DNA from: Clostridiales bacterium UBA5448
GTDB lineage: Bacteria > Bacillota > Clostridia > Oscillospirales > SIG627
Reading direction: 5' to 3'
Length of the DNA stretch: 64,000 nt
Assembly (NCBI GenBank): GCA_002427425.1
Contig: DIRA01000014.1
Location: forward strand, 363,540-427,539
In this document: positions 21,989-40,735 of the stretch, in pieces
Position numbering within the stretch: position 1 is the first letter of the stretch
Layout of the letters: every line of letters begins with the position of its first letter
Notes under the pieces: generated by a model
Databases searched by the model: none
What the model saw: the letters and a program-made list of their open reading frames with translations, nothing else
Told to the model about the DNA's origin: nothing
Program-made: the position numbers and the translations under genes

Positions 21989-22462
21989 ATGACGGAGAGA
22001 TTCGATATGTTTTCCGCCGCCATTGCCCAGATATCCAAGTGCATGCAAAAGCTGAAAACCAGAGAAATGCATCAATTCGGGCTGCGGGGAACCCACGCTA
22101 TGTGTTTGTATCATCTGCAGAAAAATGAATTAGGATTGACAGCCTCCCAATTGACCGATCTCTGCGATGTGGACAAAGGGGCCATTTCCCGCGCTGTGAC
22201 AGAGATGCAGCAGCTGGAAATTGTGACCTACCCCGAGGGAGACGGAAAACGAAAATACAGAGCGAAAATCAAATTAACGGACAAGGGGATTACTGTGACC
22301 GAAAAGCTCAACCGCAGCATTGGAGAGGCGGTGGAGAGGGCCGGAATCGGATTGACCTGGGAAGAACGGGAGAACTTTTATAAAGCTTTGAATATCATAT
22401 CCCAAAATATTCAAACGTTATGTTTAGATGAATGCATCTTGCAAAAAGGAGAATTATCATGA
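21989..22462 (+). CDS. MarR family transcriptional regulator
   Basis: 157 aa with a winged HTH (LTASQLTDLCDVDKGAISRAVTEMQQLEIV). Confidence 0.85.
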   Translation: MTERFDMFSAAIAQISKCMQKLKTREMHQFGLRGTHAMCLYHLQKNELGLTASQLTDLCDVDKGAISRAVTEMQQLEIVTYPEGDGKRKYRAKIKLTDKGITVTEKLNRSIGEAVERAGIGLTWEERENFYKALNIISQNIQTLCLDECILQKGELS

Positions 22463-24156
22463 AATATAATGCCAGATTTGTTTACAATGTGAGAAACGTT
22501 GTAACCATTCGCCAATTGCTTGAATCCAGCTTTGAACTGTTCCCAAACAACGCGGCATTTTTGTACCATGAACAATCCAATGTAGTAGAAAAAACCTATA
22601 AGGCAGTTTTGGCGGATGTAAAGGCCTTTTCCACCTATTTGAATCAAAAAGGGTTGGAAGGAAAAATCATTGCCGTCACCGGCAAAAATTGCTATGAATG
22701 GGCTCTGACTTATTTGGCGGTGGCTTGCGGGACCGGCATCATCATACCCGTGGACAAGGATTTGCGGGAGGATGAAATCGACTATCTGCTGCGGGATTCA
22801 GGCGCGGCTGCCATTGTATATTCCTCTGAAGTCGAGGAAAAGATTCTCAAAAATAAATCCGACTGCATCAAAATGTCCATGGACAACATGGGTGCTTATC
22901 TTGACGAAGGAAATGCGTTGCTCAAGCAGGGCGACTTGTCCTATTTGCACCATCGGATAGATCCATATGCGCTGGGAATACTGTTATACACATCGGGAAC
23001 CACCGGCGTGGCAAAAGGGGTCATGCTTTCCCAGAATAACATTTGTTCCAATATTGTCAACGTATGCCGCATGGTGCATGTGTCGTCGGAAGATCGGGTA
23101 TTGTCGGTGCTTCCGCTGCATCACACCTATGAATGCATGGCGGGATTTTTATCCATACTGTTTTTGGGCGGCAGTATTGCTTATAACCGCAGCTTGAAAA
23201 AATTGCAGGCGGATTTTCTTACCTTTCGTCCCACCATTTTCATCGCCGTTCCCCTAATTTTGGAAAGTCTGCGGAAGATGATTATTAAAAAATACTCCAA
23301 AATTTTTGGCGGAAATATGGTATTGAATGCCCAAAGAACGGTTTCCACCCTCGCCGGTCCCTTAATGAAGGCTAAAAAACTGGTGTTCAATTCGGTGAAC
23401 GCAGCATTTGGCGGGAGACTGCGGCTCATTTTATCCGGCGCGGCGCCATTGTCTCCGGAAACCTTCCGTGATTATGAACGATTCGGCATCAAGACATTGA
23501 TCGGGTACGGCTTGACGGAAACCTCCCCGGTGTGTATCATGCACAGCGATTTTTACAGAAGCGCCGATGACATCGGATATCCCATTGTGGGCGTACAGGC
23601 AAAAATCAGCGATCCCGGAGAAGACGGTGTGGGCGAATTGGCTGTAAAAGGCCCCAATGTCATGCTGGGATACTATAATAATCCGGAAGAAACCCAGAAA
23701 GTTATGAAGGACGGATGGTTTTATACCGGAGATTTGGCCAAACAAAAACAAAACGGTGCCTTTCAGATTACGGGGAGACTGAAGAGCATGATTGTGCTTC
23801 CCAGTGGAAAGAAGGTATTTCCCGAAGAATTTGAATATTATCTCATGCGTTATCCTTATGTGGGAGAATGCATGGTGTACGGTGTTGACGGCGAAAACGG
23901 CATCGAATTGACTGTGAGTATTTATCCCAATACGGAAGAAGTGGATAAACGATTGGTCAAGGACAATTTTGTGCCGGACAGCGCGGAATATAACTATGCC
24001 AAACGGAATCTGTTTGAAAACATTATCAGAGAAGTCAACGAAAAATTCCCCAAATACAAGCATATTCGCCGCGTGATTTTGCGGGATAAAGAGTTTGAGA
24101 AAACCACCACCCGCAAAATCAAAAGAACAGCCGCCGCCAACCTGAAACAGGATTAA
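22459..24156 (+). CDS. AMP-dependent synthetase/ligase (long-chain-fatty-acid--CoA ligase-like)
   Basis: ILLYTSGTTGVAKGVMLS AMP-binding motif, GYGLTETS, TGDL. The start overlaps the marR stop (ATGA). Confidence 0.88.
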   Translation: MKYNARFVYNVRNVVTIRQLLESSFELFPNNAAFLYHEQSNVVEKTYKAVLADVKAFSTYLNQKGLEGKIIAVTGKNCYEWALTYLAVACGTGIIIPVDKDLREDEIDYLLRDSGAAAIVYSSEVEEKILKNKSDCIKMSMDNMGAYLDEGNALLKQGDLSYLHHRIDPYALGILLYTSGTTGVAKGVMLSQNNICSNIVNVCRMVHVSSEDRVLSVLPLHHTYECMAGFLSILFLGGSIAYNRSLKKLQADFLTFRPTIFIAVPLILESLRKMIIKKYSKIFGGNMVLNAQRTVSTLAGPLMKAKKLVFNSVNAAFGGRLRLILSGAAPLSPETFRDYERFGIKTLIGYGLTETSPVCIMHSDFYRSADDIGYPIVGVQAKISDPGEDGVGELAVKGPNVMLGYYNNPEETQKVMKDGWFYTGDLAKQKQNGAFQITGRLKSMIVLPSGKKVFPEEFEYYLMRYPYVGECMVYGVDGENGIELTVSIYPNTEEVDKRLVKDNFVPDSAEYNYAKRNLFENIIREVNEKFPKYKHIRRVILRDKEFEKTTTRKIKRTAAANLKQD

Positions 24157-24166
24157 GGAGGCAATT

Positions 24167-24328
24167 ATGAAAAGAAGACGGATCAAGGTGTCGCAAAACA
24201 CCATCATTGCCGCCATGTTCGGTGTGGCATTTGTGAGTTTGATCGCAGTTTTAATGAATTATCATCGGATCATCAAGGCCTTGTTGCTCAACAAGGATGA
24301 GGATTTGACGGAAGATTGGGACTATTAA
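24167..24328 (+). CDS. Small membrane protein (53 aa); below the ORF-track length cutoff
   Basis: AAGGAGG at 24155-24161, ATG at 24167. MKRRRIKVSQNTIIAAMFGVAFVSLIAVLMNYHRIIKALLLNKDEDLTEDWDY has a basic N-terminus, one TM segment and an acidic tail. Confidence 0.45.
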   Translation: MKRRRIKVSQNTIIAAMFGVAFVSLIAVLMNYHRIIKALLLNKDEDLTEDWDY

Positions 24329-24356
24329 TTTATTTCTGTTTTTTCATCCATTCCCC

Positions 24357-24385
24357 TTGACACGGTTGATAAAATATGTTATAAG
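24357..24385 (+). promoter_or_regulatory. Promoter of the aro operon leader
   Basis: TTGACA (24357-24362), 17 nt, TATAAG (24380-24385). Confidence 0.55.
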
Positions 24386-24419
24386 TAGTGTAATCAGTTT
24401 CGAGAAAGGATGATTGACC

Positions 24420-24506
24420 ATGAAATCGATCGTTTCCATGGCAATTGGATACTTCTTTTATTGCTTTTACTTTACCTCTAAAGTAAAAGTGATTCGTGTT
24501 GCATAA
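24420..24506 (+). CDS. Candidate aromatic (Phe/Tyr-rich) leader peptide, 28 aa
   Basis: AAAGGA RBS 9 nt upstream. MKSIVSMAIGYFFYCFYFTSKVKVIRVA has 7 of 8 consecutive codons encoding Tyr or Phe. It lies between a promoter and an intrinsic terminator, directly upstream of aroF-tyrA-...-pheA. Confidence 0.5.
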   Translation: MKSIVSMAIGYFFYCFYFTSKVKVIRVA

Positions 24507-24562
24507 AAGCTTTCGATGAAACTGGGACGGGTGAAATAAACCTAAAACCGGAAGATTGAAGG

Positions 24563-24600
24563 GCCGCACAGAGTCACCTCTGTGTGGCTTTTGTTTTTTT
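24563..24600 (+). terminator. Intrinsic terminator (attenuator) in the aro leader
   Basis: GCCGCACAGAG-TCAC-CTCTGTGTGGC, an 11-bp stem with one G-U pair, followed by TTTTGTTTTTTT. It ends 14 nt before the aroF ATG. Confidence 0.8.
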
Positions 24601-24614
24601 AAGGAGTGTACAGT

Positions 24615-25616
24615 ATGATTGCTATTTTAAAGCAGGGAACAAGTGCAGAACAAAGAGATCATTTGTGTGAATGGTTTCGGAACATGGGACTGGATGTACA
24701 CATTTCCGAGGGGAAATATCACAGCATCATTGGATTGATCGGGGATACAAGCAAAGTGGATATCGGGCTTTTGGAGAGTTTGTCCATCATCCAATCGGTG
24801 AAACGGATCAGCGAACCCTTCAAAAACGCCAATCGTAAATTCCATACGGAAGATTCTGTCATGGATATTCTGGGAAACAAAATCGGCGGAGGACATTTTC
24901 AGATCATCGCCGGGCCCTGTTCCGTGGAATCCCGAGAACAGATTGTATCCGTTGCCAAAAGTGTGAAAGAAGCAGGGGCAACCATATTGCGGGGTGGCGC
25001 CTTCAAACCCCGCACTTCCCCATATGATTTTCAGGGGCTTCACGGAGAAGGCATTTCCTTGCTGTTGGATGCCAAGCGGGAAACAGGGATGCCTATCATC
25101 ACTGAGATTATGAATGCAAACGACTTGCCGTTGTTTGAAGATGTGGATATCATTCAGGTGGGCGCCCGGAATATGCAAAATTTTGACTTGCTCAAAGAAT
25201 TGGGGAAAACCCATAAGGTGATTCTTTTAAAACGAGGGCTGGCAAACACTTTAAAAGAACTTCTCATGAGCGCGGAATACATCATGGCAGGAGGAAATGA
25301 AACGGTCATACTCTGCGAACGGGGCATCCGTACCTTTGAAACCTATACCAGAAACACCCTGGATCTTTCCGCTGTCCCCCTGCTCCATGAATTGACCCAT
25401 CTTCCCGTGATCATCGACCCCAGCCATGCCACCGGATTGTCTCGCCTGGTGGAACCCATGGCATTGGCGGCTGCGGCGGCTGGGGCGGACGGTCTTATGA
25501 TCGAAGTGCACAACGATCCGGAACATGCCTTGTGTGACGGTGCCCAATCTCTAACCCCTGCCCAATTTGCAGCCGTGGTACAGAAAGTGAAGAAAATCCG
25601 GGAGGCTCTGTCATGA
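24615..25616 (+). CDS. aroF: 3-deoxy-7-phosphoheptulonate (DAHP) synthase, class I-beta, with an N-terminal regulatory domain
   Basis: AAGGAG RBS, ATG at 24615. About 75 aa of ferredoxin-like N-terminal domain, then IAGPCSVES, GAFKPRTSPYDFQG and IIDPSHA motifs. Confidence 0.9.
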   Translation: MIAILKQGTSAEQRDHLCEWFRNMGLDVHISEGKYHSIIGLIGDTSKVDIGLLESLSIIQSVKRISEPFKNANRKFHTEDSVMDILGNKIGGGHFQIIAGPCSVESREQIVSVAKSVKEAGATILRGGAFKPRTSPYDFQGLHGEGISLLLDAKRETGMPIITEIMNANDLPLFEDVDIIQVGARNMQNFDLLKELGKTHKVILLKRGLANTLKELLMSAEYIMAGGNETVILCERGIRTFETYTRNTLDLSAVPLLHELTHLPVIIDPSHATGLSRLVEPMALAAAAAGADGLMIEVHNDPEHALCDGAQSLTPAQFAAVVQKVKKIREALS

Positions 25617-26452
25617 TGACCATTGGCATTGCAGGTCTTGGTCTGATGGGTGGATCGCTGGCAAAAGCGTATCAAAGAAATCCGAAAATAACGGTATACG
25701 GCATGGATGCCAATGCTTCCATCACCGAATTTGCTAAACTCTCCGGTGTCATTGACAACGAATTGAACCGGGATACCATCGGGGAATGTGAGTGTGTGTT
25801 CATTGCCTTATATCCCAGGGCCGCCCGGGACTATCTGGAATCCATGGCACCCCATATCCCACCAAAAACGCTGGTCATGGATTGCTGCGGCACCAAACGG
25901 GAAATGTGCCAAATAGGCTTTCGTCTTGCCCGGGAATATGGATTCGAATTCGTGGGCGGACATCCCATGGCAGGAAACCATCATGCGGGCTTTCGGAGTA
26001 GCCGTGCCGACTTGTTTGAAAAGGCGTGTATGGTGGTTGTCCCCAAAACCTTTGATGATATTGTATTGTATGATCGCATCAAAAAGGTTTTGGAACCGGC
26101 GGGTTTCGGGAAAGTATCGGTGACCACAGCCGAAAAGCACGACGAATTGATTGCCTTTACCTCCCAGATGGCCCATGTGGTATCCAATGCGTTTATCAAA
26201 AGCCCTACCGCCGGCGAACATAAAGGGTTTTCTGCCGGAAGCTACAAGGATTTGACCCGTGTGGCATGGTTGAATCCGGACATGTGGACAGCCTTGTTTT
26301 TAGAAAACAAAGATAATTTGTTAAAGGAACTGGATATCTTTCTTCGGGAACTGCAAAAATATCGGGATGCCATTGTCGACGGGGATGAAAAAGAGCTTCA
26401 CCGTTTGCTGGAAGAAGGAAGCAGAAGAAAGGAAGAAGTGGACGGAGCATGA
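25613..26452 (+). CDS. tyrA: Prephenate dehydrogenase
   Basis: IGIAGLGLMGGSLAKA Rossmann motif, GGHPMAG motif. 279 aa, with overlapping start/stop codons. Confidence 0.88.
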   Translation: MMTIGIAGLGLMGGSLAKAYQRNPKITVYGMDANASITEFAKLSGVIDNELNRDTIGECECVFIALYPRAARDYLESMAPHIPPKTLVMDCCGTKREMCQIGFRLAREYGFEFVGGHPMAGNHHAGFRSSRADLFEKACMVVVPKTFDDIVLYDRIKKVLEPAGFGKVSVTTAEKHDELIAFTSQMAHVVSNAFIKSPTAGEHKGFSAGSYKDLTRVAWLNPDMWTALFLENKDNLLKELDIFLRELQKYRDAIVDGDEKELHRLLEEGSRRKEEVDGA

Positions 26453-27501
26453 AAAAGGTACACATCCGGACCCCAAGCAAACAGTATGATGTCTATATAG
26501 GAAGCAGTCTTTTGGAAAAAGCAGGAAGACTTTCTGCCAACATCATCGGCGTGGGAAAAGTGGCGATTGTGACCGACGACATCGTGGATCGGTTGTATGC
26601 TTCCCGCTTGCAGCAGGTATTGGAAAAAACAGGATATACTGTGGTAAAATTTGTGTTTTGTCACGGGGAGGCCTCAAAAAATGCCGCTACATATATACAG
26701 CTGTTACATTTTTTAGCTAAAAATCATTTGGTACGTACCGATGCCGTATTCGCTCTGGGCGGCGGTGTGGTGGGGGATATGGCAGGATTTGCGGCGGCGA
26801 CCTATTTGCGGGGTGTTCGCTTTGTGCAGCTACCCACCACCCTGCTGGCTGCGGTGGATTCCTCCGTGGGGGGGAAAACTGCCATTGATCTGGAGGGGGG
26901 CAAAAATCTGGCAGGGGCTTTTTATCAGCCGGATTTGGTACTGTGCGATTGTTCTTTGTTGGAAACGCTGGAACCCCGGCACATTTCCGACGGTCTTGCG
27001 GAAGTGATCAAATATGCCGTCGTTCGCGACGAGGGGCTTTTTACCAGGTTAAAAACCGTTGCAAAAAAAGAGTGGGCGCCCATCATTGCCCGCTGTGTGG
27101 AAATCAAAGGCGAGATTGTGGGAAAGGATGCAATGGATACGGGGGTACGGGAGCTGTTGAATTTCGGTCATACTTTCGGACATGCCATAGAAGCATCCGG
27201 CAGGTATACCCTTTCCCATGGCAGTGCGGTGGGCATTGGCATGGCCATCATCACCCGAGCCTGTGTCAAACAAGGACGTTGCGACCTGTCTTGTCAGCGG
27301 GAATTGGAAGATATGTTGACGCGCCATGGGCTTTCCACGCAAACCGATTTGTCTGAAGAGGTAATATTTCAAGCAGTTTTATCGGATAAAAAAAGAAAAC
27401 AAGACGGCATCACCCTCATCCTGCCCCGAAAAATCGGGCTGTGTGAAGGCGTGAAAGTATCTTTGGAAGAAGCAAAAGAATATTTGCACCTTGGACTATA
27501 A
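26449..27501 (+). CDS. aroB: 3-dehydroquinate synthase
   Basis: ALGGGVVGDMAGFAAATYLRGVRFVQLPTTLLA and LNFGHTFGHAIE motifs. Confidence 0.92.
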   Translation: MKKVHIRTPSKQYDVYIGSSLLEKAGRLSANIIGVGKVAIVTDDIVDRLYASRLQQVLEKTGYTVVKFVFCHGEASKNAATYIQLLHFLAKNHLVRTDAVFALGGGVVGDMAGFAAATYLRGVRFVQLPTTLLAAVDSSVGGKTAIDLEGGKNLAGAFYQPDLVLCDCSLLETLEPRHISDGLAEVIKYAVVRDEGLFTRLKTVAKKEWAPIIARCVEIKGEIVGKDAMDTGVRELLNFGHTFGHAIEASGRYTLSHGSAVGIGMAIITRACVKQGRCDLSCQRELEDMLTRHGLSTQTDLSEEVIFQAVLSDKKRKQDGITLILPRKIGLCEGVKVSLEEAKEYLHLGL

Positions 27502-27513
27502 AAGGGGAACGGT

Positions 27514-28785
27514 ATGCAGGTAACAATATATCCCTCCCGGTTGGAGGGTACCATGGAGGCCATTGCCTCCAAATCCCATATGCACAGATTGCTGGTGAGT
27601 GCTTCTTTGGCACGGGGAGAAACATGGATTCAGTGTAAAACAACCTCCGATGATATTGAAGCCACCCGGGATTGTCTGCAACAAATGGGGGCGGATATCC
27701 GCCGTACCGCGGATGGCTTTCATGTCATTCCACGTCAAGGAAAGGATAGCGTACCTGTCCGGGTCAACTGCAGGGAAAGCGGTTCTACCTACCGTTTTTT
27801 GTTACCTGTTGCCGGTGTTTTGGGGATGCAAACGGAGTTTATGTTGGCAGGCAGATTGCCCCAACGCCCTATGGAAGCCTTGTGGACAGAACTGGAGCAA
27901 AAAGGGATGGTTGTTTGTGGAAAAGGTACGCCTTTGGTTTCGGTCAGGGGACAACTGAGGGGCGGTGTGTATACCATGCCGGGGAATATATCATCCCAAT
28001 TCATCAGCGGACTGGTGATGGCACTGCCGCTGTTGGAGGAAGACAGCGAGATAATCATCACCGGTGATATCCAATCCAAAGGATATATTGCCGTTACGCT
28101 GGAAACGGTGAAGGGGTTTGGGATACAAGCCCATTGGGAAGGCGATCGGATGTACATTCCCGGCAAACAGACCTATATTTCTCCCGGTACGTTTAGGGCG
28201 GAAGGAGATTGGTCCAACGGTGCATTCATATTGTGTGGGGGTGCCCTGGGCGGGCGGGTTACATGCCGGGGATTGCAGCTTTCTTCCCCCCAGGGGGACA
28301 AAGCTATCTGTGAAATTTTGGGGCGGTTCGGGGCGGAAGTGACCCAAGAAACGGATGGTGTGACAGCAACGAAAAACGCCATGCAAGGCATTGACTTGGA
28401 CGGAGGTGATATTCCCGATTTGATTCCTGCCATCGCCGTGGTGGCAGCGGCGGCAGAAGGAAGAACCATTCTCCGTAACATCGGAAGGCTGAAATGGAAA
28501 GAAAGTGATCGGCTGCTTGCCATCGGTAAAACTTTGCAAACAGTAGGCGGACAGGTGGAGATTTTGGAGGATTCTTTGGTGATAGAGGGAAATGGCACCC
28601 TTCACGGCGGTACCATCCATTCCTTTGGGGATCATCGCATTGTGATGATGGGGGCGATCGCTTCCTTATTGTGTGAAAATTCTGTCATCATTCGGGATGC
28701 CCAGGCGGTACAAAAATCGTATCCCCGTTTTTTTGAAGATTTTCAAACTTTAGGAGCCAATATCCAAAAGGAGGAAGAAACATGA
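27514..28785 (+). CDS. aroA: 3-phosphoshikimate 1-carboxyvinyltransferase (EPSP synthase)
   Basis: ASKSHMHR, LRGGVYTMPGNISSQFISGL, DHRIVMM motifs. 423 aa. Confidence 0.92.
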   Translation: MQVTIYPSRLEGTMEAIASKSHMHRLLVSASLARGETWIQCKTTSDDIEATRDCLQQMGADIRRTADGFHVIPRQGKDSVPVRVNCRESGSTYRFLLPVAGVLGMQTEFMLAGRLPQRPMEALWTELEQKGMVVCGKGTPLVSVRGQLRGGVYTMPGNISSQFISGLVMALPLLEEDSEIIITGDIQSKGYIAVTLETVKGFGIQAHWEGDRMYIPGKQTYISPGTFRAEGDWSNGAFILCGGALGGRVTCRGLQLSSPQGDKAICEILGRFGAEVTQETDGVTATKNAMQGIDLDGGDIPDLIPAIAVVAAAAEGRTILRNIGRLKWKESDRLLAIGKTLQTVGGQVEILEDSLVIEGNGTLHGGTIHSFGDHRIVMMGAIASLLCENSVIIRDAQAVQKSYPRFFEDFQTLGANIQKEEET

Positions 28786-29873
28786 GTTCATGTTACGGAA
28801 AAAACATCCAAATATCCATATTCGGTCAATCCCATTCCCCTGCCATCGGTGTGGTCATAGACGGACTGCCGGCAGGATTTGCTCCGGATATGGAGAAGTT
28901 ATCCGCTTTTTTAGAAAGGCGAGCACCCGGAAGAAATGCTTTGTCCACCCCGCGTCAGGAAACAGACAAGGTGGAAATCGTGTCGGGCATGGCAGACGGC
29001 CGATTTTGCGGCGCGCCGTTCGCTGCTTTGATTTATAATCACAATGTTCATTCCTCCGATTATCATAACATAAAAGAAACCCCCAGACCCGGTCATGCAG
29101 ATTTTACCGCGTTTGTCAAATATCACGGAGCGCAGGATGTGGCGGGCGGCGGTCATTTTTCCGGTCGGCTCACGGCACCAATGTGTGTGGCAGGGGGTAT
29201 TTGTCTGCAGCTTCTGGAACAGGAAGGGATATATATCGGCGCTCACATTCAAAGCATCCATCAGGTGCCGGATATCCCCTTTGATCCGGTGAAGGTCTCA
29301 AAAGAGACGTTTTATTCCCTACGCACCCGCCTTTTGCCTGTCATGGACAGAAAAGCGGGAGAACACATGGAAAATCTCATCGAAAAGGTGCAACAAGAGG
29401 GAGATTCCGTAGGCGGCGTCATCGAATGTGCTGCCATCGGCTTGCCCGTGGGGTTGGGAGAACCGATTTTTGAAGGGATGGAAAACCGCCTTTCATCGGT
29501 CATATTCGGTATTCCCGGGGTGAAAGGCATTGAATTTGGCAATGGATTTGCTTGTTGTGATCGAATGGGTAGCGAAAACAACGATCCTTTTACCATGGAA
29601 GAAGGCCGCGTGAAAACCCGGACCAATCGCCACGGCGGGATATTGGGGGGGATCACATCGGGTATGCCATTGATTTTCCGTGTGGCGGTGAAACCCACTT
29701 CCTCCATATTCAAATCCCAAGAAACCGTATCATTGTCCCGATTGGAAAGTACCACGCTCCAAATACAGGGCAGGCATGATCCTTGCATCGTGCCGCGGGC
29801 GGTTCCCTGTATAGAAGCGGCGACAGCCATTGCCATCTATGATGCCTGGCTGGATTACAAAAAATATCAATAA
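28782..29873 (+). CDS. aroC: Chorismate synthase
   Basis: FGQSHSPAIGVVIDGLPAG, RPGHADF, GRHDPC motifs. Confidence 0.92.
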   Translation: MSSCYGKNIQISIFGQSHSPAIGVVIDGLPAGFAPDMEKLSAFLERRAPGRNALSTPRQETDKVEIVSGMADGRFCGAPFAALIYNHNVHSSDYHNIKETPRPGHADFTAFVKYHGAQDVAGGGHFSGRLTAPMCVAGGICLQLLEQEGIYIGAHIQSIHQVPDIPFDPVKVSKETFYSLRTRLLPVMDRKAGEHMENLIEKVQQEGDSVGGVIECAAIGLPVGLGEPIFEGMENRLSSVIFGIPGVKGIEFGNGFACCDRMGSENNDPFTMEEGRVKTRTNRHGGILGGITSGMPLIFRVAVKPTSSIFKSQETVSLSRLESTTLQIQGRHDPCIVPRAVPCIEAATAIAIYDAWLDYKKYQ

Positions 29874-29884
29874 GGAGAACAACG

Positions 29885-31027
29885 ATGGATATGCAGACAT
29901 ATCGGAGTCAAATGGATGAAGTGGACCAACAATTGGTGTCATTGTTTGTAAAACGGATGGAATTATCACAAACCATAGCCCAATATAAAGCCGACCATAA
30001 ACTACCCCTCTATGACCCCCAAAGAGAACGGGAAAAACTTTCACACATTGCTTCACAAGTGGGGCCTTCCATGGCCACGTATACCGATGCTTTGTATTCG
30101 TTTCTCTTTGAAATGAGTCGTTCCTGCCAGCGCAAGCAAATGGGACAAAACACTGCCCTCACAGGGGAGATTCTCAAAGCGTTGGAACAAACCGAGCCTC
30201 TTTTTCCCCCCCGTGCTTTGGTGGCGTGTCAAGGGGTGGAAGGGGCGTTTTCTCAACAAGCATGCGAAAAAATTTTTTCCTCCCCCCATATTTTGTATTT
30301 CAATTCCTTTGAAGGGGTATTTTCCGCCATTGACAAGGGATTGTGCCGCTATGGTATTTTGCCGTTGGAAAACAGCAGTGCCGGCTCGGTGAATAAAATT
30401 TATGATTTGATGATGAAATACAATTTTAGTATCGTCCGCAGCACCCGTTTGAAAGTGGATCATTGTCTGCTTGTAAATCCCGGGGTGAAGTTAAAAGATA
30501 TTAAGGAAATTTTGTCCCATGATCAGGCTTTTGCCCAGTGCCAAGATTTTCTCAAGACCATGGAAAACGTGAAAATCTCTTCCTGTGATAATACGGCTGC
30601 TGCTGCCAAATATCTATACGAATCGGGGCGTGCCGATGCCGCCGCATTGTCCTCCCGCAACTGTGCCGAACTGTATGGCTTAGACTGCTTACAAGAATCG
30701 GTACAGGACCAGGGAAGCAATTATACCCGGTTTATCTGCATTTCCAAGAAATTGGAAATCTTTCCAGGGGCAGATATAACCAGCATTATGATGGTATTAC
30801 CCCATAAACCCGGTTCCGTATACAAAGTGTTGGCACGGTTTTATGCATTGGGAATTAATTTAATCAAATTGGAAAGTAGGCCCTTGCCCAACAGCGATTT
30901 TGAATTTATGTTTTATTTTGATTTGGATGTTTCGGTATATTCCGATGCCTTCAAGCAAATTTTCGGGGATCTGGAAGAGCTGTGTGTCTCCATGAAATAC
31001 TTAGGAAGCTATACTGAAGCTGTATAA
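29885..31027 (+). CDS. pheA: Bifunctional chorismate mutase / prephenate dehydratase
   Basis: N-terminal CM_2 helix bundle (IDEVDQQLVSLFVKRMELS), then a PDT domain (YGILPLENSSAGSV) and a C-terminal ACT domain (ESRP). Confidence 0.9.
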   Translation: MDMQTYRSQMDEVDQQLVSLFVKRMELSQTIAQYKADHKLPLYDPQREREKLSHIASQVGPSMATYTDALYSFLFEMSRSCQRKQMGQNTALTGEILKALEQTEPLFPPRALVACQGVEGAFSQQACEKIFSSPHILYFNSFEGVFSAIDKGLCRYGILPLENSSAGSVNKIYDLMMKYNFSIVRSTRLKVDHCLLVNPGVKLKDIKEILSHDQAFAQCQDFLKTMENVKISSCDNTAAAAKYLYESGRADAAALSSRNCAELYGLDCLQESVQDQGSNYTRFICISKKLEIFPGADITSIMMVLPHKPGSVYKVLARFYALGINLIKLESRPLPNSDFEFMFYFDLDVSVYSDAFKQIFGDLEELCVSMKYLGSYTEAV

Positions 31028-31160: not shown

Positions 31161-32528
31161 TTATATCTTTGGTATACCCGCAAACCCTGCTGCCAATTCT
31201 TCATCCGTGGGAATATAGTCGCTCATTGTTCCATCGTGGAATTTTTCATACGCCATCATATCGAAGTAACCGGTACCGGTCAGCCCAAAGAGAATGGTTT
31301 TTTCTTCTCCTGTTTCTTTGCATTTCAAGGCTTCGTCAATGGCTGCTTTGATGGCGTGGCTGCTTTCGGGTGCGGGCAGGATGCCTTCCACCCGGGCAAA
31401 CGTTTCCGCCGCTTGGAAAACGGAGGTTTGCTCCACGGCAATCGCTTCCATCAATCCGTCGTGATATAGCTGAGACAAGATGCTGCTCATACCGTGATAC
31501 CGCAGACCGCCTGCATGGTTGGGAGCCGGTATAAAGCCACTGCCCAAGGTGTACATTTTAGAAAGTGGGCAAACCATGCCCGTATCGCAGAAGTCGTAGG
31601 CAAAAACGCCCCGGGTAAAGGAGGGACAGGAGGCGGGTTCCACGGCAATGATGCGGTAATCCGCTTCTCCTCGGAGTTTTTCTCCCATGAACGGTGCGAT
31701 CAAGCCACCCAGATTGGATCCGCCCCCAGCACATCCGATGATGATGTCGGGTTTCACGCCGTATTTATCCAGAGCGATTTTGGATTCCAGTCCGATGATG
31801 GACTGATGCAACAGCACCTGATTCAATACGCTGCCCAGCACATACCGATATCCTTCTGAGGTGACGGCGACTTCCACCGCTTCGGAAATGGCACATCCCA
31901 AGCTCCCTGTGGTACCGGGATGGTCCGCCAATATCTTTCTGCCCACGGCGGTTTCCATGGAGGGAGAAGGAGTGACCGAAGCGCCGTAGGTGCGCATCAC
32001 TTCCCGGCGGAAGGGTTTTTGTTCATACGATACTTTCACCATAAATACTTTACAGTCCAGTCCGAAATAAGAACATGCCATGGAAAGGGCGGTGCCCCAC
32101 TGGCCGGCACCCGTTTCGGTGGTAAGGCCTTTGAGACCCTGCTGATTGGCATAATAGGCTTGGGCAATGGCGGTATTTAATTTATGGCTTCCGCTGGTGT
32201 TGTTTCCTTCGAACTTATAATAAATGTTCGCAGGGGTTTGGAGTTTTTCTTCCAGGTAGTAGGCTCTCACCAGGGGAGCGGGACGATACATCGTATAGAA
32301 ATTCTGGATATCCGGGGGAATTTCAAAATAGGCGGTGTTGTCATCCAACTCTTGGCGAACAAGCTCTTTGCAAAACACGGCTTCCAGTTCTTCCGCTCTC
32401 ATGGGCTCCTTTGTCCCCGGATTGAGGAGGGGAGCCGGCTTGTTTTTCATATCTGCCCTGAGATTGTACCAGGCCTTGGGTATCTCGTCTTCTCTGAGGT
32501 AGATTTTGTAGGGGATGGGGTTTTTCAT
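31161..32528 (-). CDS. trpB: TrpB-like PLP-dependent enzyme (TrpB2-type tryptophan synthase beta chain)
   Basis: 455 aa (long TrpB2 form). NNTSGSHKLN lysine motif and GCAGGGSNLGG. Preceded by a Trp-specific T-box. No trpA is present in the window. Confidence 0.85.
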   Translation of the reverse strand: MKNPIPYKIYLREDEIPKAWYNLRADMKNKPAPLLNPGTKEPMRAEELEAVFCKELVRQELDDNTAYFEIPPDIQNFYTMYRPAPLVRAYYLEEKLQTPANIYYKFEGNNTSGSHKLNTAIAQAYYANQQGLKGLTTETGAGQWGTALSMACSYFGLDCKVFMVKVSYEQKPFRREVMRTYGASVTPSPSMETAVGRKILADHPGTTGSLGCAISEAVEVAVTSEGYRYVLGSVLNQVLLHQSIIGLESKIALDKYGVKPDIIIGCAGGGSNLGGLIAPFMGEKLRGEADYRIIAVEPASCPSFTRGVFAYDFCDTGMVCPLSKMYTLGSGFIPAPNHAGGLRYHGMSSILSQLYHDGLMEAIAVEQTSVFQAAETFARVEGILPAPESSHAIKAAIDEALKCKETGEEKTILFGLTGTGYFDMMAYEKFHDGTMSDYIPTDEELAAGFAGIPKI

Positions 32529-33057: not shown

Positions 33058-33159
33058 ATGATGAATCTGTTTGTACTTGTCAATATCGTAATTGCTGTTA
33101 TTGTCCTTCTCCTTATTGACAATGACAGAAATTGCTGTTGCCTACAAACAGAAGCTTAA
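33058..33159 (+). CDS. Candidate branched-chain amino acid leader peptide 1 (33 aa)
   Basis: MMNLFVLVNIVIAVIVLLLIDNDRNCCCLQTEA has 14 of the 17 residues 4-20 as Leu, Ile or Val. It lies between a promoter and a terminator upstream of leuA. The RBS is weak or distant (AAAGGAAA 13 nt upstream). Confidence 0.5.
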   Translation: MMNLFVLVNIVIAVIVLLLIDNDRNCCCLQTEA

Positions 33160-33187
33160 AGGGAATCATCGTATCATCGATTCATGA

Positions 33188-33226
33188 AAAGCCTTGTAGT
33201 GTAATAGCTACAGGGCTTTCTTTGTT
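33188..33226 (+). terminator. Intrinsic terminator after leader peptide 1
   Basis: AAAGCCTTGTAG-TGTAATAG-CTACAGGGCTTT, with one G-U pair. The distal TT of the 3' arm begins a TTCTTTGTT tract. Confidence 0.65.
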
Positions 33227-33254
33227 ATATATTTGTTCTCAGGAGGAAACTGGA

Positions 33255-33356
33255 ATGAACCATGCAGAAATCAAACGAATTCTTGTATATGGCATTCTTA
33301 GCATTGTCGTACTTATACGACAATGCAGATACGGTTTTGCCACAGGGGAACAATAG
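33255..33356 (+). CDS. Candidate branched-chain amino acid leader peptide 2 (33 aa)
   Basis: Strong AGGAGG RBS 8 nt upstream. MNHAEIKRILVYGILSIVVLIRQCRYGFATGEQ has 11 of the 16 residues 6-21 as Ile, Leu or Val. The 74-aa track ORF 33132-33356 is an unsupported upstream extension of this frame. Confidence 0.55.
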   Translation: MNHAEIKRILVYGILSIVVLIRQCRYGFATGEQ

Positions 33357-33383
33357 ACTCAGCATCAAAAGATGGGTCAATCT

Positions 33384-33408
33384 TCGGGGCAAACACCCCG
33401 ATTTTTTT
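33384..33408 (+). terminator. Intrinsic terminator after leader peptide 2
   Basis: TCGGGG-CAAACA-CCCCGA followed by TTTTTTT, 46 nt before the leuA ATG. Confidence 0.75.
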
Positions 33409-33454
33409 ATTTTTAAATATGAAAGGCTTACCACAAGCCAGAAGGAGGAAACGG

Positions 33455-34984
33455 ATGAAGAGCCGAATTAAAATCTTTGACACAACACTGCGGGACGGTG
33501 AGCAGGCCCCCGGATGCAGCATGAATCTGCATGAAAAAATTGAGGTGGCACGCAGACTCGAACTCCTTCGCGTGGATGTGATCGAAGCCGGCTTTGCCAT
33601 TTCTTCCCCGGGAGACTTTGAATCGGTAACGACGGTAGCCGAAACCATTCAAAATTGTACCGTCGCTTCCTTGGCACGGTGTGCCTACAAAGATATTGAT
33701 GCCGCCTACAACGCACTGCGCAAAGCGGTAGATCCCCGCATCCATGTCTTTCTCGCAACCTCTCCCGTACACATGGAGTATAAATTGAAAATGTCCCCCC
33801 AACAAGTGTTGGAAACCATTGAAACGATGGTCAAGTACGCCAAAAGCCGCTGTCATAACATTGAGTTTTCCGCTGAAGATGCCATGCGAAGCAATCCGGC
33901 GTTCTTGGCACAGGCAGTCAGATGTGCCATTGCTGCCGGTGCCACTGTGATCAACATTCCCGACACCGTGGGATACGCCACCCCCCTGGAAATGCAAAAC
34001 ACGCTGCAATATCTGCGAAAAGAAGTGCCGGAATGTGAAAGCATCGATTTATCCGTCCACTGCCACAATGATTTGGGTATGGCAACCGCCAATACCTTGG
34101 CAGGTATTATAGGAGGTGCCACCCAGGTGGAATGTACCGTCAACGGTTTGGGCGAACGGGCAGGCAATGCACCTTTGGAAGAAGTGGTCATGGCCATCCG
34201 CACCCGTCCTGATCTGTATGGATTGGAAACCAACGTGGATACGTCCCAAATTTATATGGCAAGTAAGACGGTTTATGGCATCATCGGGAGAACCGCTCCC
34301 ATCAACAAGCCGGTCGTGGGCGGAAACGCCTTTGCCCATGAAGCAGGCATTCACCAACACGGGGTATTGGCCAATCGAAGCACCTATGAGATTATGACTC
34401 CCGAATCCATCGGTATTACCACCCGTCAAATGGTTTTGGGCAAACATTCCGGCAGACATGCCTTTGAAGACAGACTGCGGGAATTGGGCTTTAGTTTGAG
34501 CCGAGATGATCTGGAAAGCTGCTTTACCCGCTTCAAAAATTTGTGCGATAAGAAAAAAGATGTCACCGATAAAGATATTCTGGCGCTGGTTCGCAACCTG
34601 GAAGTGACATCGGCAGCGGTTTATGTATTGAAACGTTTCTCGGTACACGCCGGAGGAACCGAATCGGCAACCGCCATTGTAACGCTGGAAAAGGACGGTG
34701 TGGTGACTGAGGAAGTGGCACTGGGCAACGGTCCCGTGGACGCGGCCTATCGGGCGGTGGACAAGATTATTTTACCGCCGGAATATAGTATTGAAAATTA
34801 TGTCATAAACTCTGTATCAGAGGGAAAAGACAGCTTGGGTGAAGTCGTCACCACCTTGAAATACGGCGATCGAATATTTACCGGCCGAGGACTTTCCACC
34901 GATATTATTGAAGCCAGTATTTTGGCATATATACACACACAAAACAAACTGATGGCATATTATCAAACAGAAAAGGGGGCATGA
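33455..34984 (+). CDS. leuA: 2-isopropylmalate synthase
   Basis: Start at [17 protein letters not shown], behind [24 protein letters not shown] motif and the C-terminal LeuA allosteric domain. Confidence 0.92.
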
Positions 34985-38870: not shown

Positions 38871-38969
38871 ATGATGTCTTATCTGTTTGTCAGCCTTATC
38901 GTCTTCCTTATTGGCATTATCGTCATAATTGATAATGCTTTTCGGCGCTGCGCTGGCAAAGAGGTGTGA
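38871..38969 (+). CDS. Candidate branched-chain amino acid leader peptide 3 (32 aa)
   Basis: AAAGGAG RBS. MMSYLFVSLIVFLIGIIVIIDNAFRRCAGKEV has 12 of the 16 residues 5-20 as Ile, Leu or Val. It shares MM..LFV...IV......IDN...C with leader 1. It is followed by a terminator and then ilvB. Confidence 0.5.
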   Translation: MMSYLFVSLIVFLIGIIVIIDNAFRRCAGKEV

Positions 38970-38993
38970 ATAGAGTGAAAATAAAACTCTTGA

Positions 38994-39027
38994 AAAGACC
39001 TTACAGCGAACGCTGTAAGGTTTTTTC
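38994..39027 (+). terminator. Intrinsic terminator after leader peptide 3
   Basis: ACCTTACAGC-GAAC-GCTGTAAGGT followed by TTTTTCTT, preceded by AAAAG. Confidence 0.8.
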
Positions 39028-39055
39028 TTATATATGAAAGGAGAATGAACGCACA

Positions 39056-40735
39056 ATGAACTGCAGCGGAGCACAAATATTGGTGGAAGAATTGATCAAA
39101 CACGGCGTCAAAACCGTCTTTGGTTATCCGGGCGGTGCCGTACTCGATATTTACGATGAGTTGTATCGGAATGCCCACCGGATCGAGCATATCATTTCCG
39201 CCCATGAGCAAGGGGCTGCTCATGCCGCCGACGGATATGCCAGAGTGACAGGAAAACCGGGGGTGGTGATTGCCACCAGCGGTCCCGGCGCCACCAACCT
39301 GGTCACCGGCATCGCCAATGCGTACCTGGATTCCATACCCATGGTGGCGATCACCGGCAACGTGGCCGTTTCCCTGTTGGGCAGGGACAGTTTTCAAGAA
39401 GTAGACATCATCGGCATCACCCAACCCATCGTCAAACATAGCTATATCGTGAGAAAAGTGGAGGAGCTGGAATTTGTATTGTCGGAAGCATTCTGGCTTG
39501 CTTCCACCGGACGAAAAGGGCCCGTTCTGGTGGATATCCCCAAAAGCGTCCAGAAAGAACTGTGTGAGTATCCCGGTTCTCGCCGTCATAGCTCCCCGCC
39601 TTCCTCCCAAGTGTCCGATTTGGATCTGACCGAAGCATTGAAATTCATTGCAAACAGCAAGCGGCCCTATATTTATTGCGGTGGGGGCGTATTGGCGGCG
39701 GAGGCAGAAGAAGAAATAGTATCCCTTTCTCAACGCCTGTCCGCTCCTGTCGGATTGAGTATGATGGGTTTGACCGCGATCCCGGCCTCCTATCCTTTGA
39801 ACCTGGGTATGAGCGGCATGCATGGAAAATATGCGGCTTCCATGGCTCAGTCCAAGGCAGATTTGATCCTTGCTGTAGGAGTACGGTTCAGCGACAGAGC
39901 CACGGGGAACGTGGCAGAGTATACCAAAAACTGTACCGTCATACACATCGATATTGATGAAGCGGAAATCGGCAAGAACATCACTTCCGTGGTGGAATTG
40001 TGCGGAGATGCCAAGGCTATTCTGCAAAAACTGTTGGAAAAGCTTCCCCTTGCCCGGCAGGAGGAATGGCTGGAAACCGTGGCGGCATACCGGAAAAAAG
40101 ATGAATGCAGGGAAAAAGAACTCTATTTTACCCCCGGCAATATCTTACGGTATATTGCCAACGCTGTTCCCCCTGAAACGGTGGTCGCCACCGACGTAGG
40201 GCAGCATCAAATGTGGACCATGCAGCATTACCGTTTTGAACGAACCAGAACTCTACTCACTTCCGGCGGTTTGGGGGCGATGGGATTTGGTTTGGGTGCA
40301 TCCATCGGGGGATGTGTGGGAAACGAAAAAAACCCCACCCTGCTCTTTACGGGGGACGGCAGTTTTGGCATGAATTTAAACGAACTCGCCACGGCGGTGT
40401 CTCAACAACTGCCCATTTTGATCGTGCTGTTTAACAACGGGGTACTGGGTATGGTGCGGCAATGGCAGTACATGTTCTATGAAGAAAGATATTCTTCCAC
40501 CACCTTAGGCAGAAAAACCGATTTTGTTCAGCTTGCCAAAGCTTTTGGAGCCGATGGAAAAACCATTCATTCCATGGACGAATTAAAACAGGCGTTTTCC
40601 CAGGGATTCCCCTCTGACGGACCCTTTTTGCTGGACTGTCGGATCGATGGGAATGAAAGAGTGTATCCCATGATTCCTCCCGGAGGATCGGTGAAAGATA
40701 TGATGATGCAGCAAGGAGGTGAAGCACATGAATGA
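39056..40735 (+). CDS. ilvB: Acetolactate synthase large subunit (biosynthetic type)
   Basis: TPP-enzyme motifs (GYPGGAVLDIYD; GLGAMGFGLGASIG; GDGSFGMN). 559 aa. Confidence 0.92.
   Translation: MNCSGAQILVEELIKHGVKTVFGYPGGAVLDIYDELYRNAHRIEHIISAHEQGAAHAADGYARVTGKPGVVIATSGPGATNLVTGIANAYLDSIPMVAITGNVAVSLLGRDSFQEVDIIGITQPIVKHSYIVRKVEELEFVLSEAFWLASTGRKGPVLVDIPKSVQKELCEYPGSRRHSSPPSSQVSDLDLTEALKFIANSKRPYIYCGGGVLAAEAEEEIVSLSQRLSAPVGLSMMGLTAIPASYPLNLGMSGMHGKYAASMAQSKADLILAVGVRFSDRATGNVAEYTKNCTVIHIDIDEAEIGKNITSVVELCGDAKAILQKLLEKLPLARQEEWLETVAAYRKKDECREKELYFTPGNILRYIANAVPPETVVATDVGQHQMWTMQHYRFERTRTLLTSGGLGAMGFGLGASIGGCVGNEKNPTLLFTGDGSFGMNLNELATAVSQQLPILIVLFNNGVLGMVRQWQYMFYEERYSSTTLGRKTDFVQLAKAFGADGKTIHSMDELKQAFSQGFPSDGPFLLDCRIDGNERVYPMIPPGGSVKDMMMQQGGEAHE

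Follow-up and report, generated by a model that had tools for sequence, protein, structure and literature searches.

A candidate tyrosine- and phenylalanine-sensing leader-peptide attenuator upstream of the aromatic amino acid operon of an Oscillospirales bacterium

In Proteobacteria, attenuation of the trp, phe, his, leu, thr and ilv operons by leader peptides is textbook knowledge, with pheL-pheA, pheM-pheST and trpL of Escherichia coli as the classical four-region leader-peptide attenuators. Here we examine the leader of an aromatic amino acid operon, aroF-tyrA-aroB-aroA-aroC-pheA, in Clostridiales bacterium UBA5448 (Oscillospirales), located in a stretch of 64,000 nucleotides (nt) of contig DIRA01000014.1 (this whole stretch is called the window, and positions are counted from its first letter). 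Sequence comparison and folding models suggest, with a probability that we put at roughly 85%, that this leader is a ribosome-mediated transcription attenuator sensing charged tRNA-Tyr and tRNA-Phe jointly. Attenuation by pheL has been reviewed (PMC3082878), and the nearest counterparts in Firmicutes are the 'aromatic amino acid attenuators' uORF-12 and uORF-13 (uORF, upstream open reading frame), predicted by Stav et al. 2019 (BMC Microbiol 19:66, PMC6429828; Fig. 6b, Additional files 1 and 3) and found starting from Clostridium novyi (type examples NC_008593.1). The 336 examples of uORF-13, from Bacillales, Clostridiales, Thermoanaerobacterales and Negativicutes, combine an F-Y-F peptide with a terminator and lie in about half of the cases upstream of aroF, with tyrA next, besides other shikimate genes; the 1258 examples of uORF-12 lie mostly upstream of transporters (PMC6429828). 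The F-Y-F codons are placed inside the P1 loop in uORF-13 and directly before P1 in uORF-12 (PMC6429828).

The window leader is an element of the kind already predicted by Stav et al. 2019 (PMC6429828), and is thus less novel than assumed in an earlier note made on this DNA from its letters alone; the premise of that note, that Firmicutes usually rely on T-boxes or TRAP for their aromatic genes, is outdated in view of the same predictions. Shared with uORF-12 and uORF-13 are a short F/Y-rich uORF with F-Y-F followed by a terminator, the occurrence in Firmicutes, the aroF, tyrA and transporter contexts, and a trp-like attenuator reading. Apart from where the F-Y-F codons sit relative to P1, every descriptive feature stated for uORF-13 is found in the window leader, on a comparison of descriptions and not of alignments. 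The antiterminator and the anti-Shine-Dalgarno helix identified below are, by contrast, absent from the published description, as is any experiment; literature searches turned up no experiment that validates a Tyr/Phe leader, or tests its response to amino acids, in Firmicutes. In the window leader, helices P0/P1a (helix names of the present model) surround the aromatic codon run, the last codons of which make up the 5' arm of P1b. What the present analysis adds, on comparative grounds, is a covariation-backed model of all pairings, a predicted specificity for Tyr and Phe (not Trp), and a link to a transporter of family PF04392.

Other described leaders resemble this locus in part. The candidate uORFC-13-1 (Brewer et al. 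2021, RNA Biol 18:2417), known from 24 examples in Acholeplasma and environmental sequences, occurs exclusively upstream of aroF and likewise shows a promoter, a ribosome-binding site (RBS), Phe codons in a U-run, an extra paired element and a terminator; unlike the window leader, it is described with Phe only, the comparison again being one of descriptions. In Corynebacterium glutamicum the aroR leader upstream of aroF (cited in the supplement of Stav et al. 2019; PMC11802643) also places an F-Y-F leader peptide before a DAHP synthase gene and attenuates aromatic biosynthesis, but it is actinobacterial, and its peptide and RNA structure are stated to be distinct. T-box leaders (RF00230) whose specifier is for Tyr, Phe or Trp share the purpose, the terminator/antiterminator output and the phylum; they sense uncharged tRNA directly and without a uORF, and RF00230 has no match at the aroF leader. 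Premature termination has been reported in the aroF 5' untranslated region of C. difficile (Fuchs et al. 2021, PMC8237595), and regular His leader peptides in Bacilli (Naville and Gautheret 2010, PMC2965389).

The earlier note had drawn attention to a TTGACA-17-TATAAG promoter, an open reading frame (ORF) with a plausible RBS, seven Tyr or Phe codons among eight consecutive ones, a 10-bp hairpin on the last of these codons, a long-range helix around the ORF, a terminator ending 14 nt before aroF, and an operon containing both tyrA and pheA. All of these are present (Table 1). The hairpin, whose core is formed by CTTTTACTTT and AAAGTAAAAG, extends to 15 bp in the minimum free energy (MFE) fold, which also contains the long-range helix; the terminator stem has 15 pairs, and the Shine-Dalgarno (SD) sequence of the ORF is GAAAGGA. 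The leader as a whole folds with an MFE z-score of -4.9, a stability equalled by none of 200 shuffles. In 31 of 53 related leaders a similar promoter-like element recurs at a constant distance; the window's own promoter was passed over by a consensus promoter scanner that requires T as the last base of the -10 element, because this base is G here. NCBIfam models identify aroF, aroB, aroA and aroC above curated cut-offs, and tyrA and pheA by strong matches below cut-off, with the pheA product recognised as chorismate mutase/prephenate dehydratase. The operon thereby holds the common shikimate pathway together with the Tyr and the Phe branch.

Table 1. Positions in the window of the aro leader, its operon and neighbouring features
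Feature	Positions	Strand	Details
ORF MKRRRIKVSQNTIIAAMFGVAFVSLIAVLMNYHRIIKALLLNKDEDLTEDWDY	24167-24328	+	53 codons; strong SD AGGAGG; preceded by acyl-CoA ligase-like gene, 22432-24156
Promoter	24357-24385	+	-35, 17-nt spacer, -10; direct sequence reading
-35 element TTGACA	24357-24362	+	
-10 element TATAAG	24380-24385	+	extended -10 TGtTATAAG 24377-24385, TG at 24377-24378
P0, 5' strand	24395-24408	+	overlaps leader SD; pairs with 24510-24524 in MFE fold
Leader SD GAAAGGA	24403-24409	+	10 nt 5' of ATG
Leader peptide ORF MKSIVSMAIGYFFYCFYFTSKVKVIRVA	24420-24506	+	28 codons + stop; ATG 24420, TAA 24504-24506
Regulatory codon run	24450-24473	+	TAC TTC TTT TAT TGC TTT TAC TTT (Y F F Y C F Y F); 7/8 codons Tyr or Phe
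P1 hairpin (regions 1:2)	24460-24493	+	15 bp in MFE fold, 24460-24474 with 24479-24493
P1 core hairpin	24464-24489	+	10 bp
Region 2 GTGATTCGTGTTGC	24489-24502	+	antiterminator 5' strand; conserved as RNA, not protein
P0, 3' strand CTTTCGATGAAACTG	24510-24524	+	anti-SD segment; MFE fold and cognate pairing test
Intrinsic terminator (regions 3:4)	24559-24600	+	15-bp stem 24559-24592/3, then T-run to 24600; 14 nt to aroF ATG
Region 3 GCCGCACAGAGTCAC	24563-24577	+	terminator 5' arm + loop; antiterminator 3' strand
aroF	24615-25616	+	ATG 24615; SD AAGGAG 24601-24606
Operon aroF-tyrA-aroB-aroA-aroC-pheA	24615-31027	+	NCBIfam matches
TrpB-like PLP enzyme gene	31161-32528	-	
T-box leader RF00230	32598-32843	-	99.8 bits; upstream of TrpB-like gene
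leu leader candidate	33059-33227	+	promoter-like TTGACA ~32995; terminator ~33189-33222; leuA 33323-34984
ilv leader candidate	38871-39032	+	terminator ~38996-39030; ilvB 39056-40735
PF04392-linked leaders (related genomes)			L088, L093, L094, L096, L116, L141, L145, L154, L159, L165, L167, L180

Conservation of the uORF was assessed at 80 loci encoding AroF relatives of 67-82% identity, nearly all from metagenome-assembled genomes of Clostridia and mostly Oscillospirales (Oscillospiraceae, Ruminococcaceae, Acutalibacteraceae and Lachnospiraceae types), along with Sporobacter and Angelakisella. A short ORF with at least six F/Y among eight consecutive codons lies upstream of aroF at 64 of these loci, against 0.4 in mononucleotide shuffles and 1 on the reverse complement; at the looser threshold of at least five of eight the count rises to 70. 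In 51 of the 53 leaders that were aligned, the Tyr/Phe-reading frame begins with an ATG that is preceded, at 5-16 nt, by an SD-like sequence. The encoded peptides are 17-37 amino acids (aa) long with variable stop positions, contain F 210 times, Y 205 times and W once, and include FYF in 30 of 51 related cases, the window peptide itself holding C-F-Y-F-T. Downstream of the aromatic run there is no conservation as protein among the relatives. A nucleotide block, GTGATTYGTGYTGC, is nevertheless conserved there, and because it is read as V-I-R in some leaders, as S-D-S/L-C-C (SDS/SDL) in others, or falls beyond the stop codon, it must be conserved as RNA. With up to three mismatches it was found in 54 of 81 upstream regions. 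Codons kept where they would be sensed, together with RNA kept where it would pair, are the pattern expected of a leader-peptide attenuator. The alignment of orthologous aroF leaders that the earlier note had proposed supports its suggestion of a Phe/Tyr-sensing attenuator: the aromatic run is retained and the hairpins covary. Loss of the ORF with retention of the RNA structure, which that note had named as evidence against its proposal, is the opposite of what the relatives show.

Covariation was evaluated in a MAFFT alignment of 53 leaders (A1). The P1 hairpin, whose 5' arm consists of the last aromatic codons and whose 3' arm overlaps the first 5 nt of region 2, has a family core helix that is 86% paired, with double changes in 7 of 12 pairs, and the terminator helix is 88% paired, with double changes in 12 of 13. 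Taken together, P1 (the last aromatic codons with an AAAGTAAWAG arm) and the terminator are 87% paired compared with 36-52% when the partners are slid, and 19 of 25 pairs have changes on both sides, values that were reached in none of 500 shuffles. RNAalifold independently predicts both helices. One relative (L003) carries, about 160-260 nt upstream of aroF, a tandem duplicate of the terminator arm sequence (CCGCACAGAATCACACTGTGCGGC) between leader and gene, and has a much longer spacer to aroF (158 nt).

The antiterminator, which the earlier note could not make out, is formed by region 2 with region 3. In the window the two segments give a duplex of -14.8 kcal/mol in RNAduplex, comprising 13 pairs, one bulge and one mismatch, and this duplex and the terminator, which share the terminator 5' arm, are mutually exclusive. 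The more conserved half of the pairing, UGUGYUGC with GCRGCACA, is 82% paired in the alignment as opposed to 30-54% when slid. In the apical half, where MAFFT misaligns the loops, no more than 54% of the cells pair, so that alignment counts were replaced by register-free duplex energies of cognate and non-cognate partners. This half is compensatory across genomes, where GTGATT faces AGTCAC or AATCAC, GCGAT faces ATCGC, GAAATT faces AATTTC, GTAATT (GTAATTC) faces AATTAC (GAATTAC), and GCGGTT faces AACCGC. Cognate apical halves pair more stably than non-cognate ones with z=-10.9, and the mean energy of the whole duplex is -13.0 kcal/mol for cognate as against -10.15 kcal/mol for non-cognate partners; in both comparisons none of 20000 permutations attained the observed value. 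This covariation is specific to the antiterminator, because the nucleotides concerned lie mostly in the terminator loop and are unconstrained by the terminator itself.

The dependence of the antiterminator on ribosome position was modelled by folding the nascent transcript as far as the loop of the terminator (in the window, to 24578) in place of the full-length RNA. For the window, the mean probability of the antiterminator pairs is 0.98 with the A-site anywhere from F12 to T19, 0.85 at Y11, 0.67 at K21, and 0.00 at V24 or at the stop codon. Across the family (n=51), region 2 is paired to the terminator arm over a mean fraction of 0.59 when a ribosome is stalled at the median aromatic codon, 0.14 when it has reached the stop codon and 0.24 in the absence of a ribosome, the corresponding medians being 0.78, 0.00 and 0.06 (Wilcoxon p ~2e-7). 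In every one of the 51 leaders the stop codon falls either 5-13 nt ahead of the start of region 2 or 11-39 nt beyond it, and a terminating ribosome would therefore overlap region 2. The earlier note had suggested folding the full-length leader with the aromatic codons masked; such folds show no switch, which appears for the nascent transcript only.

Two further pairings complete the model. Among the relatives, the uORF SD region and the segment directly 3' of region 2 form more stable pairings when both come from one locus than when they are taken from different loci (z=-5.0; reached by 0 of 20000 permutations), for example as GGAGGC with GCUUCC or AAAGGAU with AUCCUUU. The long-range helix of the window is thus conserved in kind. 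We posit that this helix, P0, is an anti-SD element that would shut the leader to new ribosomes after RNA polymerase has cleared region 2. The codons preceding the aromatic run, GCWGCACAG (Ala-Ala-Gln) or GCAGCCGAA (Ala-Ala-Glu), pair as P1a with the 3' half of region 2 (z=-5.6), and P1a would lengthen P1 into a classical 1:2 anti-antiterminator. An internal loop of P0 (24400-24404 and 24514-24520) sets UUUCGAGAAAG opposite CUUUCGAUGAAA, where tandem G/A flank a 3-nt bulge in a kink-turn-like manner. An interpretation of the long helix as part of a T-box or as a K-turn was rejected, there being no T-box match and the helix being a covarying anti-SD pairing.

From these parts the following course may be proposed. 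Transcription would start a few nt 3' of the -10 element, and a ribosome would load at the SD and start codon (24403-24422) and translate the 28-codon leader. When Tyr and Phe are plentiful it would reach the stop codon, with its footprint over region 2; region 3 would then pair with region 4, and the resulting terminator would halt transcription 14 nt before aroF. When either amino acid is scarce, the ribosome would stall among the seven Tyr/Phe codons, melting P1 and leaving region 2 exposed to pair with region 3 as the latter emerges, in which case no terminator would form and polymerase would read through into aroF-tyrA-aroB-aroA-aroC-pheA. P0 would conceal the leader SD once RNA beyond region 2 exists, and probably limits the leader to a single round of translation. 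Translation of the uORF, stalling caused by uncharged tRNA, and an increase of read-through under starvation are what we infer from the sequence. As in E. coli pheL, pheM and trpL, the regulatory codons lie in region 1, pairings 1:2, 2:3 and 3:4 are available, the stop codon is placed such that region 2 would be masked, and the leader RBS can be occluded. Unlike these attenuators, the window leader shows no sequence similarity to them and no match to the Rfam leader families, appears to sense two amino acids jointly with equal Tyr and Phe codons, precedes the common pathway together with both branches, and has an antiterminator that extends into the terminator loop.

Several observations weigh against this reading. 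All support for it is comparative or in silico. The uORF is missing in about 10 of the 80 relatives, and 27 of the 81 upstream regions have no recognisable region-2 block. The window's own P1a pairing is weak (-7.3 kcal/mol). A ribosome footprint of 30 nt, from -18 to +11 relative to the A-site, was assumed. Equilibrium folds of the full-length leader give the terminator under every mask, and the switch must therefore be kinetic, like that of known attenuators. Finally, the nascent window RNA forms the antiterminator with a probability of 0.85-0.87 even without a ribosome, so that a state in which absence of translation leads to termination is not supported for the window member.

This last result also bears on an alternative that we consider unlikely, in which P1 and the block GTGATTYGTGYTGC constitute a binding site for a protein or small molecule (a riboswitch, or a TRAP- or PyrR-like system) and the uORF is incidental or modulatory. 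If the antiterminator forms ribosome-free, a factor blocking region 2 could be the off-signal, and region 2 and P1 are indeed conserved as nucleotides regardless of reading frame. The conservation of region 2 is, however, fully explained by its two alternative, covarying pairings; an ATG and SD are kept in 51 of 53 leaders in the very frame in which the U/A/C-rich arm reads as Tyr/Phe; and the leader has neither an Rfam family match nor a conserved, complex junction or pocket, and repeated triplets of the TRAP type are not visible in it. The idea of a degenerate T-box, or of some other leader that binds tRNA by way of a Tyr or Phe specifier, has next to no chance of being right. Aromatic genes of Firmicutes are usually regulated by T-boxes and a bona fide one lies in the same window, yet the Rfam model that scores 99.8 bits there finds nothing in 24250-24700 at E<=10, the T-box sequence and antiterminator bulge are absent, and the long helix is an anti-SD pairing and not a Stem I. 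More generally, Rfam 15 returned nothing relevant at gathering scores in the whole window or at E<=10 in 24250-24700, where the amino acid leaders for Phe, Trp, His, Thr, Leu and leu/phe were likewise without a match at E<=10. The weak hits there were put down to chance or to the terminator; among them, a trpB motif match of 18.6 bits, against a gathering score of 59, was rejected as driven by the terminator only.

The peptide itself could also be the active agent. An arrest peptide (..A-A-x-F/Y-Y-F-x-Y-Y-F-F) that stalls on free Tyr/Phe or another signal in the manner of TnaC would yield the same structural outcome by stalling at the run, and the N-terminal half is somewhat conserved (F/A-A-A/E-Q ahead of the run). 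We nevertheless hold this to be very improbable: it would switch on a biosynthesis operon and an uptake transporter when their product is abundant, the conserved codons before the run are explained by RNA pairing with region 2, and the F/Y residues follow no fixed length, order or spacing, unlike those of known arrest peptides. Less plausible still is a functional hydrophobic micro-protein, with a constitutive, leaky terminator that separates the ORF from aroF. Although the peptide is hydrophobic with a conserved aromatic core, its C-terminus and length (17-37 aa) are not conserved, the covarying antiterminator would be left unaccounted for, and the linkage of the element to aromatic amino acid genes is strict. 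Ribosome-mediated attenuation by Tyr and Phe codons thus remains the reading that we favour.

The distribution of the leader was followed with a degenerate pattern scan of species-representative genomes, which gave at least 120 loci; the first 100 were scored with a covariance model built from the alignment (R1), and 72 were confirmed among the matches listed. Of these, 56 lie upstream of aroF and 2 upstream of tyrA, while a further 12, each with a Y/F-rich uORF, precede a gene for a PF04392 lipoprotein, the substrate-binding protein of an ATP-binding cassette (ABC) transporter. These contexts mark the element as belonging to an aromatic (Tyr/Phe) regulon, and lead to the prediction that the PF04392 transporter imports Tyr and/or Phe. 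As a search for a link to Clostridium sensu stricto, the same scan recovered, among the matches listed, mostly Oscillospirales and some chance matches in unrelated phyla; an exact-match search with 38 nt of the leader found no identical sequence in the genome contigs searched.

It is possible, although we think it rather doubtful, that the Oscillospirales-type Tyr/Phe leader is a distinct, undescribed family and not a member of uORF-12 or uORF-13, characterised by a loop-invading antiterminator and by an anti-SD helix through which the leader becomes closed once it has been translated for one round. It would also take its place in a change, across the lineage, from T-boxes to leader peptides (aro, leu and ilv, with the aro leader also on the PF04392 transporter). 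Were this so, abundant Clostridia of gut and rumen would run a Tyr/Phe regulon wholly through the stalling of ribosomes. On the favoured reading, and on its in silico basis, textbook leader-peptide attenuation, long seen as mainly proteobacterial and actinobacterial, would govern aromatic synthesis in a large group of uncultured Clostridia from gut, rumen and digesters. A class known as a supplementary-text prediction thereby acquires a complete structural model, from promoter and anti-SD helix through the 1:2, 2:3 and 3:4 pairings to the placement of the stop codon, while the understanding of the attenuation mechanism itself is unchanged. For annotation the model may be of use since these leaders are not in Rfam and their small ORFs are likely to be labelled hypothetical or overlooked; for engineering, the element could offer a compact dual Tyr/Phe sensor.

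Two further candidate leaders of the same build occur in the window. The leu candidate, not in Rfam, has an SD and ATG opening an ORF, MMNLFVLVNIVIAVIVLLLIDNDRNCCCLQTEA, rich in Leu, Ile and Val, lies upstream of leuA, leuC and leuD, and scores 37.8 bits (E 6e-6) with the covariance model of the aro leader. The ilv candidate, upstream of ilvB, ilvN, ilvC and ilvD, likewise has an SD and ATG, encodes MMSYLFVSLIVFLIGIIVIIDNAFRRCAGKEV, rich in Ile, Leu and Val, and scores 32.8 bits (E 8e-5). The lineage therefore appears to use ribosome-mediated attenuation broadly, and leucine and branched-chain synthesis are probably under leader-peptide attenuation there too. As for the T-box of the window, it precedes a gene for a TrpB-like pyridoxal phosphate (PLP) enzyme on the opposite strand, and from this arrangement the tryptophan branch seems to be tRNA-sensed, and Tyr and Phe to be ribosome-sensed.

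Within the operon, the catalytic-domain model TIGR01361 spans only residues 65-320 of AroF, which therefore has an N-terminal extension of ~65-70 aa (the first ~65 codons correspond to 24615-24810). We presume that this extension could be an allosteric Tyr/Phe-binding domain comparable with that of Thermotoga-type DAHP synthases, in which case feedback inhibition would act in addition to attenuation. Between the acyl-CoA ligase-like gene and the aro promoter lies a 53-codon ORF without an NCBIfam match, whose product has one predicted hydrophobic segment.

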